64,000 bases of DNA from an uncultured beta proteobacterium (GCA_963742965.1 CAVUOC010000006.1:5967-69966), one strand, 5' to 3'. Positions 56,972 to 61,775 are shown, counted from the first letter of the stretch. Made by a program: numbers and translations. Notes: generated from the sequence alone by a model not told the origin.

Positions 56972-57457
56972 ATGGCAAAGCTCAACATCAACGGCAAGGT
57001 CCGTGACGTGGAGGTGGAGAGCGATACGCCTCTCCTCTGGGTGATCCGCGAGCAGGTCGGCCTCACCGGCACCAAGTACGGCTGCGGCGTCGCGCAATGC
57101 GGCGCCTGCTCGGTGCACATCAACGGCGAAGTGATGCGCTCGTGCTCGATCCCGGTCGGCACGATCAAGGCGACCGACCGGATCGTCACGATCGAGGGCC
57201 TTTCCGCCAACCGTTCGCATCCGGTGCAGAAGGCGTGGCTCGCGGTCGACGTGCCGCAATGCGGCTACTGCCAGTCGGGCCAGATCATGGCGGCGGCAGC
57301 GTTGCTGAAGAAGAACCCGCACCCGACCGACAAGGACATCGACGATGCGATGACCAACATCTGCCGGTGCGGGACCTATCAGCGCATCCGCGCGGCGGTG
57401 CATCTCGCCGCCAGGACGCAGACCGCCGACGGCGGCCGCGCGACGACCGAAGCGTAG
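56972..57457 (+). CDS. (2Fe-2S)-binding small subunit of an IorAB-type (xanthine oxidase family) molybdoenzyme
   Basis: ORF 56972..57457, 161 aa. Two Fe-S Cys clusters: [12 protein letters not shown] and CGYCQSG..CRCGTY. Confidence 0.9.
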
Positions 57458-57474
57458 ATTCGAGGAGACCCGCG

Positions 57475-59692
57475 ATGACAACGACCTCGCGCGGCAAGAC
57501 GACGAATCTCTCGCGCCGCAGGTTCCTGGTGAGCTCGGCCGCCGCAGGCGGCGGGCTCGCGCTCGGCTTTCAGCTTCCGTTCGCGGTGGCCGAAGCCGCG
57601 ACGCAGACCGCCGCGCCGGTTCCGGAGATCAATGCGTGGGTTGTCGTGAAGCCCGACAGCACCTGCGTGATCCGCATCGCGCGCTCGGAGATGGGGCAGG
57701 GGACGCTCACCGGTCTCGCCCAGCTCGTCGCCGAGGAGCTCGAGTGCGACTGGAAGAAGGTGACGCACCGAGTCGCCGACGCCGGGCGAGAACCTCGCGC
57801 GCAAACGCGTGTGGGGCGAGATGGGAACCGGCGGAAGCCGCGGGATCCGGACGTCCGAAGACTACGTTCGCCGCGGCGGCGCCGCGGCGCGGATGATGCT
57901 CTTGCAGGCGGCCGCCAACGAATGGAAAGTGCCGGTCGCCGAGCTCACGGTGTCCAACGGCGTCATCACGCACGCCGCGTCGAAGCGCACGACGACGTAC
58001 GGCAAGGTCGCTGCGGCCGCGGCGAAGCTTCCGCCGCCCGACGAGAAGAGCATCAAGCTCAAGGATCCGAAGGAGTGGAAGATCGCCGGCAAGCCGCTGC
58101 AGCGGCTCGACACGGCGCCGAAGCTCGACGGCAGCCTCGTCTACGCGATCGACGTCAAGCTGCCCGGAATGAAGTGCGCGGCGATCAAGGCGAGCCCCGT
58201 TTTCGGCGGCAAGCTCGTGAGCTTCGACGAAAGCAAGATCGCCGGAAGGGCCGGCGCGCCGCGCGCCGTCAAGGTGAACGACCGCACGGTGGCCGTCGTC
58301 GCCGACACGTGGTGGCGCGCGAAGTCCGCGCTCGACGCGCTGCCGATCGTCTGGGACGAAGGTCCTTCGGCATCGCAGACGAGCGCGACGATCGCCGAGC
58401 ATTTGAAGGAGGGCCTCACCGCGCCCGGCGCGTATGCGTATCGGCAGGAAGGCGACGCGCTGAAGGCGATCGACGGCGCTGCGAAGAAAGTCGAAGCCGT
58501 CTACAGCACGCCGTTCCTCGCGCACGCGACGATGGAGCCGATGAACTGCACGGCGAAGGTCACGGCGGACCGCGCCGAGGTGTGGGTGCCGACGCAAAAC
58601 GGCGAGGCGGCGCTCGCAGTGCTGTCCGAGGAGTCCGGCCTGCCGCTCGAGAAGTGCGAGGTCTACAAGCACGTGCTCGGCGGCGGATTCGGCCGCCGCG
58701 GCAGCACGCAGGATTACGTGCGCCAGGCGGCTGCGATCGCCAAGCAGTTCCCCGGCGTTCCGATCAAGATGATCTGGAGCCGCGAAGAGGACATGACGCA
58801 CGACTTCTACCGGCCGATCTCGCAGTGCCGGCTTGCCGCCGGCCTCGACGAGTCGGGCAAGCTCGTCGGCATGCACGTGCGCGTGTCGGGCCAGTCGATC
58901 AACGCGTTCAACAATTCGCCGCTCGCGAAGGACGGCAAGGACGAGCGGCAGATGCAGGGCTATTACGAGAAGCCCGGCGATGCGCAGCTGGGCTACACGT
59001 TCCCGAATCTGCTGATCGAGTACGCGATGCGCAACACGCACGTCCCCGTCGGGCCGTGGCGCGGCGTCAACACGAACCAGAACGCCGTCTACATGGAATG
59101 CTTCATCGACGAGGTGGCGAAGGCCGCGGGCGCGGATTCCGTCGAGTTCCGCCGGGCTCTGATGCAGAAGCATCCGAAGCACCTTGCGGTGCTCAACGCG
59201 GCGGCGGCGAAGGCCGATTGGGGCAAGCCGCTCCCCGCAGGCGTGCATCGCGGCGTCGCGCAGTTCATGGGTTACGGCAGCTATTCGGCGGCCGTCGCCG
59301 AGGTTTCGGTCAGCGCCGACGGCAAGGTCAAGGTCCATCGAATGGTGCTCGCGCTCGATTGCGGCCACGCGGTCAATCCCGCGCAGATCGCAGCGCAGGT
59401 CGAAGGATCGGTTGCATACGGGCTGAGCGCCGCGTTCTTCGGCGAATGCACGGTCGACAAGGGCCGCATCGTCGAGAGCAATTTCGACACCTACGAGATC
59501 CTGCGCCTCGTCGACATGCCGAAGGTCGAGACGGTGATCGTGCCGTCGTACGACTTCTGGGGCGGGGTCGGCGAGCCGACGATCTGCGTGGTCACGCCGG
59601 CGGTGCTCAACGCCATCTTCGCTGCGACCGGAAAACCCGTGCGCACGCTGCCGCTGAAGAGCCAGAAGATCGGGTTATCCGCGAAGGCATGA
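57475..59692 (+). pseudogene. molybdopterin-binding large subunit (IorB-like) with twin-arginine signal, one frame break
   Basis: ATG 57475 after GAGGAG. MTTTSRGKTTNLSRRRFLVSSAAAGGGLALG..IRIARSEMGQGTLTGLAQLVAEELECDWKKVTH (frame of 57097..) then ESPTPGENLARKRVWGEMGTGGSRGIRTS.. and ORF 57809..59692 (627 aa). One extra base near 57772. Confidence 0.85.
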
Positions 59693-60204
59693 GTCCGGCG
59701 AGCCATGGCGCCAGAGGCCGCTGCGTTCGAGCCCGCGCTCGAACGCGGCGTCGCTCGAAGATCGCGGGCATCGTTGCGAGCGGCCTTGTGGCGGCCGCGC
59801 ACGTCGCCGCGGCCGCCGATCCGGTGCCCGATGCGCTCGTCCCCTATCGCGTCGTCGCCGACGGAATACCGGAGCCGCTCGCAACGGGTGACGCCGCGCG
59901 CGGGAAGGCGCTGCTCGCTGCGCGCGATCCCGCGAACTGCGTGCTGTGCCACTCGGTGCCGGACGCCTCGATCCCGTTTGCGGGCAACGTCGGACCGCCG
60001 CTCGCCGGCGTCGGAGCGCGGCTCTCGACGGCGCAGCTGCGCTTGCGCGTCGTCGACAACATGCGCGTCAACTCGCAGACGATCATGCCGAGCTATTACA
60101 AGGTCGCCGGCCTCGAGCGCGTCGCCACTGCGTTCCGCGGCAAGCCGATCCTGACGGCGCCGCAGGTCGAAGACGTCGTCGCCTATCTCGGGACGCTGCG
60201 ATGA
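59689..60204 (+). CDS. soxX: monohaem c-type cytochrome SoxX
   Basis: ATG 59689 overlaps the iorB-like stop (ATGA). Signal-like ..IAGIVASGLVAAAHVAAAA; one CxxCH (CVLCH). ..STAQLRLRVVDNMRVNSQTIMPSYYKV..ILTAPQVEDVVAYLGTLR matches the SoxX C-terminal pattern as I remember it. Confidence 0.8.
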   Translation: MSPASHGARGRCVRARARTRRRSKIAGIVASGLVAAAHVAAAADPVPDALVPYRVVADGIPEPLATGDAARGKALLAARDPANCVLCHSVPDASIPFAGNVGPPLAGVGARLSTAQLRLRVVDNMRVNSQTIMPSYYKVAGLERVATAFRGKPILTAPQVEDVVAYLGTLR

Positions 60205-60672: not shown

Positions 60673-60678
60673 GAGCCC

Positions 60679-60999
60679 ATGCCCGACGCACGCATCAATA
60701 TTCCTGCGGAAGTCCCGCGCGGAAAGCCGTTCGAGGTGCGCATCCTGATACGGCACCCGATGGAAACGGGCTACCGCACCGATGACGGCGGCAAGCAGAT
60801 CGCGCGCAACGTGCTCACCACGCTCACGTGCCGCTACAACGGCGAGGCCGTGTTCTCTGCCCGGTTGAGCTCGGGAATCGCCGCGAATCCTTACCTGCGA
60901 TTCTTCGTCACCGCTCGCGAATCGGGCCCGCTCGCGTTCGAATGGGTCGACGACCGCGGGGTTCGAGGGGATGAGCGCGCGGCGGTGACTGTCGTCTGA
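60679..60999 (+). CDS. soxZ: thiosulfate-oxidation carrier complex protein SoxZ
   Basis: ORF 60679..60999, 106 aa: ..GKPFEVRILIRHPMETGYR..IARNVLTTLTCRYNGEAVFSARLSSGIAANPYLRFF.. Confidence 0.85.
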   Translation: MPDARINIPAEVPRGKPFEVRILIRHPMETGYRTDDGGKQIARNVLTTLTCRYNGEAVFSARLSSGIAANPYLRFFVTARESGPLAFEWVDDRGVRGDERAAVTVV

Positions 61000-61775
61000 T
61001 GTGGCGTTTGCTGGCGGCCGTCGTCGCGTGCTGCGCGGCCAGCGTTTCGGCGCAGCAGCGAGCGGTGCCGCTCTCCGCGTTACGCTCCGGCATAACGTTC
61101 GCCGGCGCCGACGTGCGGGCGATGCAGGCGGACGAGCTGGCAAATCCCGGCTTGCTGTGGGTCGAGCGCGGCGAGAAGCTGTGGAACGCCGCGGCGGGAA
61201 CGTCGGGCAAGAGCTGTGCGTCGTGCCACGGCGCGGCGCCGTCGTCGATGCACGGCGTCGCCGCCCATTATCCGAAGTTCGACGCCGATGCGGGCGCCGT
61301 GCTCGATCTCGATGCGCGCATCGTCGACTGCCGCACTCGACGCCAGCAGGCACCGCCATTGGCACGCGAGTCGGACGACCTGCTCGCGCTCACTGCGTAC
61401 GTCGCGTATCAGTCGCGCGGCGTGCCGCTCGCGGTCGCCATCGACGGCCCGGCGCGCGCCGCGTTCGAGCGTGGCCGCGAGTTCTACGCGCAGCGGCACG
61501 GGCAGATGAATCTCGGCTGCACGCATTGCCACGACCAGAGCTGGGGCAAGCGCCTTCTCGGCGAGACGATCAGCCAGGGACACGGGACGGGATTTCCGGC
61601 CTATCGTCTCGAGTGGCAGGGCCTGGGATCGCTGCAGCGAAGGCTCAGGGCGTGCCTCTTCGGCATTCGCGCCGAGATGCCGCCGGCGGGTGCGCCGGAG
61701 TTGACCGACCTCGAGCTCTACCTCGCATGGCGCGCGCAGGGGCTGCCGATCGAGGCGCCCGGCGTGCGCCGCTAG
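60999..61775 (+). CDS. soxA: dihaem c-type cytochrome SoxA
   Basis: ORF 60999..61775; the ATG overlaps the soxZ stop (TGATG). Signal peptide MWRLLAAVVACCAASVSAQQ; CASCH and CTHCH; ..GFPAYRLEWQGLGSLQRRLRACLFGIRAE.. contains the conserved distal Cys. Confidence 0.85.
   Translation: MWRLLAAVVACCAASVSAQQRAVPLSALRSGITFAGADVRAMQADELANPGLLWVERGEKLWNAAAGTSGKSCASCHGAAPSSMHGVAAHYPKFDADAGAVLDLDARIVDCRTRRQQAPPLARESDDLLALTAYVAYQSRGVPLAVAIDGPARAAFERGREFYAQRHGQMNLGCTHCHDQSWGKRLLGETISQGHGTGFPAYRLEWQGLGSLQRRLRACLFGIRAEMPPAGAPELTDLELYLAWRAQGLPIEAPGVRR

Follow-up and report, generated by a model that had tools for sequence, protein, structure and literature searches.

The closest described counterpart of the gene cluster analyzed here is the second sox cluster of Starkeya novella, in which soxX2Y2Z2A2F2 (Snov_1982-1977) is accompanied by a xanthine-oxidase-family molybdenum (Mo) enzyme (Snov_1975/1976) (Kappler et al. 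2013, PMC3797975). This cluster lacks SoxB and SoxCD, and no function was assigned to it; with glucose, methanol or thiosulfate, its proteins escaped detection and its transcripts reached only very low levels (PMC3797975). The same organism also possesses a full canonical sox set that is highly expressed, including during growth on thiosulfate (PMC3797975), and the SoxA of the second cluster is a dihaem type 1 protein (PMC4003848). Beyond the Starkeya papers, our literature search yielded no other relevant paper on this gene combination. We describe here a related cluster in a 64,000-nucleotide stretch of DNA from an uncultured beta proteobacterium (GCA_963742965.1 CAVUOC010000006.1:5967-69966; hereafter, the window). 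Six packed genes on its plus strand (positions 56972-61775) encode the two subunits of an IorAB-type Mo dehydrogenase, the cytochrome SoxX, a paralogue of the carrier SoxY (designated SoxY'), SoxZ and SoxA.

The window and Starkeya clusters, matched by published composition and not by sequence, both associate SoxX, SoxY, SoxZ and a dihaem SoxA with a xanthine-oxidase-family enzyme encoded by two genes, and both are without SoxB and SoxCD. The order of the modules differs between them, and the window contains no flavocytochrome c genes, whereas these are present in Starkeya (SoxF2) and in the clusters of Methylobacterium, Neorhizobium and Roseomonas described below. A previous reading of the window, made from sequence only (the sequence-only reading), had stated that no system of this composition was known to have been described. 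That statement was not borne out, given that the Starkeya cluster was published in 2013 (PMC3797975) and that the carrier paralogue already has a name in NCBIfam (TIGR04487). Within a type of cluster known from Starkeya and from this NCBIfam paralogue model, the window cluster is a betaproteobacterial variant that lacks fccAB and differs in its carrier arm.

When one genome was scanned for each GTDB species, 70 related loci were obtained, all of them in metagenome-assembled genomes (MAGs) that carry the label Casimicrobiaceae, Burkholderiales or "uncultured beta proteobacterium", and adjacency was counted in the 67 loci with enough upstream sequence. The genes soxX, soxY', soxZ and soxA were contiguous in every scanned locus, and an intact iorAB adjoined them in 58 of the 67 assessable loci (87%). 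The pair was placed upstream and co-directionally as iorA-iorB in 29 loci, and iorB and iorA were divergent from soxX in another 29; one further locus retained only a fragment of iorB and eight showed no iorAB nearby. In most co-directional loci the spacing between iorB and soxX was -4, -1 or at most +24 nucleotides, and the six genes occurred in the same order on three long contigs with differing flanks. The conservation search in Burkholderiales that the sequence-only reading had proposed thus revealed that the six-gene order is not unique to this contig, the linkage extending over approximately 60 species and two proteobacterial classes. Apart from these six genes, ORF (open reading frame) clustering of 71 loci detected no family that more than 16 of them share, and the families detected were housekeeping ones (ABC transporter, thiolase and the like). 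That iorAB and soxXY'ZA are functionally coupled is well supported, because their linkage has outlasted deep divergence and is seen in two orientations and in several orders of the modules.

Several of these loci showed additional features. A 72-amino-acid COOH-terminal iorB fragment lies 5' of soxX at 9088-9303 of L030, a contig of 4.3 Mb, and reflects either an earlier iorAB that has been lost or a fault of assembly. The eight loci lacking iorAB had only unrelated flanks (an IclR-like regulator, a dimethylglycine-dehydrogenase-like gene, transporters), and in three of them (L038, L048 and L060, approximately 6180-8610) a gene of 807 amino acids with DAO and GCV_T domains, resembling dimethylglycine or sarcosine dehydrogenase, is located 5' of soxX. 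The occurrence of such one-carbon or betaine-type genes beside sox genes may be coincidence. A second large-subunit gene precedes iorA in L068, L069 and L071 (approximately 4500-9500; order IorB2, IorA, IorB, soxX), and one or two further iorAB pairs, with 34-37% identity, follow soxA in L026, L028 and L032 (approximately 11600-17400).

In the window, iorA (56972-57457, plus strand, as for all six genes) and iorB (57475-59692) are separated by 17 nucleotides that contain a GAGGAG ribosome-binding site. An ATGA overlap joins iorB to soxX (59689-60204) at 59689-59692 and soxX to soxY' (60201-60672) at 60201-60204; a gap of 6 nucleotides separates soxY' from soxZ (60679-60999), and soxZ and soxA (60999-61775) meet in TGATG at 60997-61001. 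The 3' neighbor of soxA is a convergent gene of the PF02574 homocysteine S-methyltransferase family, the end of which is at 61779. The six ORFs, their spacings and overlaps, and the stop against the convergent methyltransferase gene had been described in the sequence-only reading and were all exact on re-reading, and the motifs that it quoted (LSRRRFLVSSAAAGG, CVLCH, CASCH, CTHCH and RLRACLFGIRA) were all found. Alignment of the DNA with that of the closest relatives placed one extra base in iorB at approximately 57765 and another in soxY' at approximately 60289. We read these two frameshifts as probable indels of long-read assembly, because neighboring genes are broken at similar density, and decay of the two genes to pseudogenes was dropped as an explanation for the same reason. 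The proteins of the syntenic contig L001 map to the window in several frames (three each for the livG-like and livF-like proteins, four for the shikimate-dehydrogenase-like protein and two for a hypothetical protein of 417 amino acids). Single-base frameshifts were present in nearly every gene checked against L001 between 50566 and 56901, a pattern typical of unpolished long-read assemblies, and ORF-based gene calls across the window are unreliable in an assembly so rich in indels.

The small subunit IorA (161 amino acids) matches PF00111 (Fer2) and PF01799 (Fer2_2); the cysteine motifs of both [2Fe-2S] clusters are visible in its translation, and it has no signal peptide. The molybdopterin-binding large subunit IorB (738 amino acids after repair) consists of MoCoBD_1/2 domains (PF02738 and PF20256) behind a twin-arginine leader, so that the Pfam check proposed in the sequence-only reading returned all of the anticipated domains on the repaired proteins. 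The signal for twin-arginine translocation (TAT) scored 17.8 with TIGR01409, above the cut-off of 16.7, in agreement with the periplasmic location that had been suggested for the enzyme. Among solved structures, IorB comes closest to 8GY3_C (E = 2e-74), an aldehyde dehydrogenase large subunit with which the GGGFGRR and GEP (GVGEP) motifs of IorB align. The 8GY3 enzyme is an aldehyde dehydrogenase of three subunits, which we take to be the membrane-bound enzyme of Gluconobacter. A subunit binding flavin adenine dinucleotide (FAD) is absent from the window cluster, with the upstream hypothetical gene and soxX enclosing two genes only. With two [2Fe-2S] domains, the Mo domains and their motifs, TAT export and no FAD subunit, IorAB belongs to the IorAB type of the xanthine-oxidase family. 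It shares with 8GY3-type enzymes and with rhizobial dehydrogenases encoded as cytochrome c, 2Fe2S and MoCoBD the FAD-less pair of small and large subunits, the TAT leader and the adjacent gene for a c-type cytochrome; it differs from them in that the only cytochromes of the window are SoxX and SoxA and that a thiol carrier pair is encoded alongside.

The Sox proteins other than the carrier paralogue were recognized by NCBIfam equivalog models. The monohaem c-type cytochrome SoxX (CVLCH) scored 76.2 with TIGR04485 (cut-off, 61), SoxZ (106 amino acids, PF08770, without a signal peptide) scored 81.8 with TIGR04490 (cut-off, 76), and the dihaem (type 1) cytochrome SoxA (PF21342) scored 240.7 with TIGR04484 (cut-off, 110), consistent with their description as orthodox in the sequence-only reading. 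The CASCH, CTHCH and QRRLRxC...RAE segments of SoxA align with Paracoccus SoxA, with both haems, the distal cysteine ligand and the flanking arginines being retained. Searches by tblastn with Paracoccus queries supported the earlier view that SoxB and SoxCD are not within reach: SoxB was detected neither in the 64-kb window nor in 87 other loci, and no SoxC or SoxD was detected in the window, with SoxCD-like genes being apparent only in L026 and L032, at a distance of 8 kb. This latter pair is SoxCD/SorAB-like. The window and 73 betaproteobacterial loci contained no gene for a cytochrome c other than SoxX and SoxA, no XdhC and no MocA. A homologue of FccB/SoxF, absent from the window, was present in three of the 73 loci, after iorB. 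The SoxA and SoxX proteins of the window are 36-40% identical to those of Paracoccus, and in the Mo-linked clusters of Roseomonas and Methylobacterium these two proteins share 50-55% identity with the window proteins and 34-39% with the canonical Paracoccus proteins. On the basis of these identities, the Mo-linked SoxA and SoxX are an old paralogous set that is present in two proteobacterial classes, and not a recently truncated standard system. Compared with the canonical Sox system of Paracoccus, the window cluster thus has in common its orthodox SoxX, SoxZ and SoxA, a homologous carrier cysteine and periplasmic export; it differs in having SoxB and SoxCD out of reach, a carrier arm other than GGCGG, and SoxA and SoxX of a separate lineage.

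The SoxY' protein (156-157 amino acids after repair; TAT leader; PF13501) scored best with TIGR04487, "SoxY-related AACIE arm protein", at 112.3 against a cut-off of 172, and reached 81.5 with the true-SoxY model TIGR04488, the cut-off of which is 125. Its score below the true-SoxY cut-off and its lack of GGCGG confirm the atypical, SoxY-like carrier that had been proposed. Cys153 of SoxY' is conserved without exception in 23 homologues, and its aligned counterpart in Paracoccus SoxY (2OX5) is the carrier cysteine. The protein ends in a COOH-terminal arm, VVVTIDACMDGT (DACMDGT end). The family comprises hundreds of metagenomic members. Among the relatives listed, x[AG]C[ML]D[GE][TSP] was found in all 120 of the betaproteobacterial type, and nearly all 120 of the alphaproteobacterial type end in AAC[LVI]E[GQ], the six that differ appearing truncated; GGCGG was found in neither set. 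The D-A-C-M-D-G-T arm and the A-A-C-(I/L/V)-E arm share the pattern of a small residue, cysteine, a hydrophobic residue and an acidic residue, although the residues themselves differ. The TIGR04487 clusters of Methylobacterium and other Alphaproteobacteria share with the window the logic of the arm and the neighboring iorAB, soxX, soxZ and soxA, whereas the window has DACMDGT in place of AACLEG, AACVEG or AACIE, a score below the cut-off, and no fccAB; SoxY' is approximately 43% identical to the TIGR04487-type protein of Methylobacterium. Weak matches to TIGR04557, the quinoprotein-dehydrogenase-associated SoxYZ-like carrier, were obtained for SoxY' (48.6 bits) and SoxZ (43.6 bits). By its name this family is likewise a SoxYZ-type carrier tied to a dehydrogenase, but it is a fused SoxYZ, its enzymes depend on pyrroloquinoline quinone and are not of the xanthine-oxidase family, and no SoxXA is implied, so that the similarity is one of resemblance only.

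Related clusters in isolates were identified by tblastn of plasmid records with SoxA. The gene order in Roseomonas marmotae is 2Fe2S, MoCoBD, soxX, soxY, soxZ, soxA, cytochrome c and FAD oxidoreductase, and that in Methylobacterium sp. NMS14P and Neorhizobium galegae is 2Fe2S, MoCoBD, cytochrome c, FAD oxidoreductase, soxX, the AACIE arm protein, soxZ and soxA. All eight genes are also present in M. hispanicum and M. symbioticum. A widespread, multispecies Methylobacterium variant (L083 and L084; protein P0211) carries iorA, iorB, cytochrome c, FCSD, soxX, soxY' and soxZ, with no soxA within 8 kb. In some hosts SoxA, the catalytic subunit, can thus be dispensed with, SoxX and the carrier being retained. 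Methylobacterium sp. WSM2598 possesses soxXY'ZA alone, without adjacent iorAB.

The Mo enzyme is also found in the absence of Sox genes. In a tblastn search of plasmids, IorB orthologues formed a band with identities of 54-62%, followed by a drop to 43%, and this band mixes Sox-linked alphaproteobacterial genes with Sox-less operons. The Sox-less orthologues (54-60% identity) are those of Sinorhizobium, Rhizobium, Agrobacterium and Methylosinus, with no sox genes in flanks of 6 kb. In all four Sox-less operons examined, a gene for a c-type cytochrome adjoins iorAB; the order is cytochrome c, 2Fe2S and MoCoBD in Sinorhizobium and Rhizobium, and 2Fe2S, MoCoBD, cytochrome c, XdhC and MocA in Agrobacterium. 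On plasmid pOB3b1 of Methylosinus trichosporium OB3b (L079), an arylsulfatase gene and a gene for a multihaem cytochrome c of 650 amino acids precede 2Fe2S and MoCoBD, with XdhC and MocA flanking. Directly 3' of iorB, Agrobacterium and Methylobacterium carry a gene for a small cytochrome c, and soxX holds this place in Roseomonas and the co-directional betaproteobacterial loci; the two genes often meet in an ATGA overlap. In a neighbor-joining tree, the Sox-less IorB proteins nested among the Sox-linked alphaproteobacterial ones, and the Sox-linked IorB of Methylobacterium was 68% identical to the Sox-less IorB of Sinorhizobium, closer than to any other Sox-linked IorB compared. Among the 175 columns that were near-invariant in 35 Sox-linked IorB proteins, none differed in all four Sox-less orthologues and 151 were identical in all four. 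The lack of Sox-specific residues and the nesting in the tree indicate that the same Mo enzyme operates with or without Sox genes.

The reading that we favor, as a tentative preference that stops short of calling it probable, is that the cluster is a conserved periplasmic electron-donor operon in which two cooperating modules share a cytochrome. It builds on one of the two proposals of the sequence-only reading, namely that a Sox cytochrome serves as electron acceptor of the Mo dehydrogenase. In the first module, IorAB would be an ordinary FAD-less, two-subunit, TAT-exported dehydrogenase of the xanthine-oxidase family that oxidizes a free small substrate, presumably aldehyde-like or heterocycle-like. 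Such an enzyme would need a c-type cytochrome as acceptor, and this acceptor may be SoxX, the gene for which is translationally coupled to iorB; a transfer of electrons from IorAB to SoxX is suggested by the cytochrome c genes adjacent to iorAB in the Sox-less operons and by the location of soxX directly after iorB, where Agrobacterium and Methylobacterium have the gene for a small cytochrome c. The second module would consist of the separate, old SoxA and SoxX lineage with SoxY'Z as its dedicated carrier. SoxA may couple a sulfur nucleophile, sulfide or thiosulfate, oxidatively to the cysteine that is invariant in the A-C-(M/L)-D-G arm. As judged from the chemistry established for SoxAX and SoxYZ, the carrier-bound sulfane chain so formed, in a unit fed with sulfide, would require neither SoxB nor SoxCD; electrons of this module would also leave through SoxX. 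The two-module reading fits the independence of the modules, with Sox genes occurring without adjacent iorAB, iorAB without Sox genes, soxA being lost, and fccAB being present or absent.

The other proposal of the sequence-only reading was a carrier-dependent oxidation, with the Mo enzyme acting on a substrate bound to the SoxY-like carrier in place of SoxB and SoxCD; in the form considered here, SoxXA, or FccAB in Alphaproteobacteria, would load the SoxY' cysteine and the Mo center of IorAB would oxidize the tethered sulfane, replacing SoxCD and perhaps SoxB. Of the two, the acceptor proposal has gained more support, from the cytochrome c beside Sox-less IorAB and from the lack of a Sox signature in IorB, but taken alone it leaves the invariant carrier cysteine unexplained, and several further observations weigh against the two-module reading built on it. 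Neorhizobium keeps a plain cytochrome c beside its Sox-linked cluster, so that the Sox cytochromes do not simply replace it, and none of the 150 highest-ranking relatives of SoxX from 1.84 billion representatives was a fusion of IorB with SoxX, the fusions among these being of SoxX with SoxA only, in addition to probable run-on gene calls. On its own, a shared cytochrome seems a weak reason for an adjacency of 87% maintained over an IorB divergence that reaches 50% identity. That the carrier has a dedicated arm other than GGCGG suggests that its partner enzyme is not SoxB or SoxCD, with IorAB as the sole conserved candidate. In every iorAB-containing cluster, soxX and soxY'Z are retained along with iorAB and with one or more potential loaders (SoxA, FccAB), and the soxA-less Methylobacterium variant, in which soxX, soxY'Z, fccAB and iorAB are kept, is fitted at least as well by a carrier-centered pathway. 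To this is added the scant expression of the sox2 genes of S. novella with thiosulfate, methanol or glucose (PMC3797975). That the SoxY' arm delivers cysteine-bound sulfane into the active-site funnel of the Mo enzyme, where Mo either oxidizes the tethered sulfur or takes the sulfur as its own sulfido ligand, is on balance doubtful, although to be taken seriously in view of the dedicated arm, the joint retention with a sulfur loader and the plain cytochrome c of Neorhizobium. Carrier-dependent oxidation, the former of these, we regard as unlikely. IorAB is the only conserved catalyst beside soxXY'ZA, given the lack of SoxB in the window and 87 loci and the presence of SoxCD-like genes in only two; the arm differs from GGCGG in every listed member; soxX, soxY'Z and iorAB always occur together with SoxA or FccAB in iorAB-containing clusters; and the linkage persists through module shuffling. 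On the other hand, IorB is indistinguishable from orthologues that work without Sox genes, soxXY'ZA lacks adjacent iorAB in eight of the 67 loci, and we know of no xanthine-oxidase-family enzyme that acts on a protein-tethered or sulfur substrate.

In the latter case, the persulfide that SoxXA or FccAB builds on SoxY' would re-install the labile, terminal Mo=S sulfido ligand of the exported IorAB, as a periplasmic counterpart of XdhC, MOCOS or CoxDEF. Sulfide can reactivate the desulfo form of xanthine oxidase, and MOCOS uses a cysteine persulfide to sulfurate enzymes that are already assembled. Such maintenance of the cofactor would account for the IorB proteins having no Sox-specific residues and for SoxB and SoxCD not being needed, and genes for XdhC and MocA adjoin iorAB in two of four Sox-less operons and in no Sox-linked locus. 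These XdhC counts are, however, very small and phylogenetically dependent, and XdhC could be encoded elsewhere in the genomes; soxXY'ZA is alone in some genomes, the system would be costly for a stoichiometric need, and to our knowledge no periplasmic sulfuration system has been described. We therefore consider cofactor maintenance quite improbable. A little less credible again is that the sox genes are an ordinary thiosulfate-oxidation set that works with soxB and soxCD encoded elsewhere, iorAB being a mere neighbor. SoxX, SoxZ and SoxA do pass the equivalog cut-offs, and the sequence examined is a 64-kb window of the genome. SoxY', however, has no GGCGG and fails the true-SoxY model, the identities given above place the Mo-linked SoxA and SoxX in a lineage of their own, an adjacency of 87% in two orientations is not chance, and in S. 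novella it is the additional canonical set and not the second cluster that is highly expressed (PMC3797975). Misassembly or a chance juxtaposition unique to this contig might be suspected in an error-rich assembly with many single-base indels, but the probability is negligible: the same order is present in independent short-read and long-read MAGs with differing flanks and in finished plasmids of isolates, and this recurrence across species-level MAGs and isolate plasmids excludes such an artifact. The two-module reading with SoxX as shared cytochrome thus remains the one that we prefer.

The region upstream of the operon contains a conserved motif, ATGCGCTAAGCTTT, at 56924-56937 (plus strand), 35 nucleotides 5' of iorA and after the stop codon of the upstream gene (56899-56901). 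The motif resembles a -10-type promoter element and is probably the -10 region of the operon promoter; a scan for consensus sigma-70 promoters did not flag it at this position. This TAAGCT-centered motif, as (A)ATGCGCTAAGCTT or GGAGTAAGCTT, recurs 5' of iorA in many related loci, both co-directional and divergent. An extra segment of approximately 80 nucleotides lies between the upstream motif and the start codon of iorA in L001, L004, L006 and L007. Scans for sigma-70 promoters and terminators gave no match on the plus strand inside the operon, and an Rfam scan of 50000-64000 gave no match. Directly 5' of iorA is a hypothetical gene of approximately 417 amino acids (55650-56901, plus strand) without a Pfam match, which is also present in L001 (5296-6549). 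Downstream, at 61779-63991 on the minus strand and convergent with the operon, are the homocysteine S-methyltransferase-family gene and a gene for a DAO-family FAD oxidoreductase.

The role of duplicate sox sets that lack SoxB is a standing question in sulfur microbiology. The set described here is widespread, being found in approximately 60 uncultured soil species of Burkholderiales/Casimicrobiaceae as well as in many Methylobacterium isolates, and its association with a Mo dehydrogenase is persistent. Automatic labeling of its genes as "thiosulfate oxidation" inflates the calls of sulfur oxidation in soil metagenomes. The existence of cultured hosts (Starkeya novella, Methylobacterium spp., Neorhizobium galegae and Roseomonas marmotae) renders the system experimentally tractable. 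If SoxX is indeed the electron acceptor of IorAB, the cluster would represent a new partnership in which a Sox cytochrome serves a Mo hydroxylase, together with a SoxB-independent carrier cycle. If sulfur on SoxY' instead enters the Mo site, it would represent either sulfur oxidation free of SoxCD and SoxB or periplasmic cofactor repair, neither of which is known for this enzyme family.

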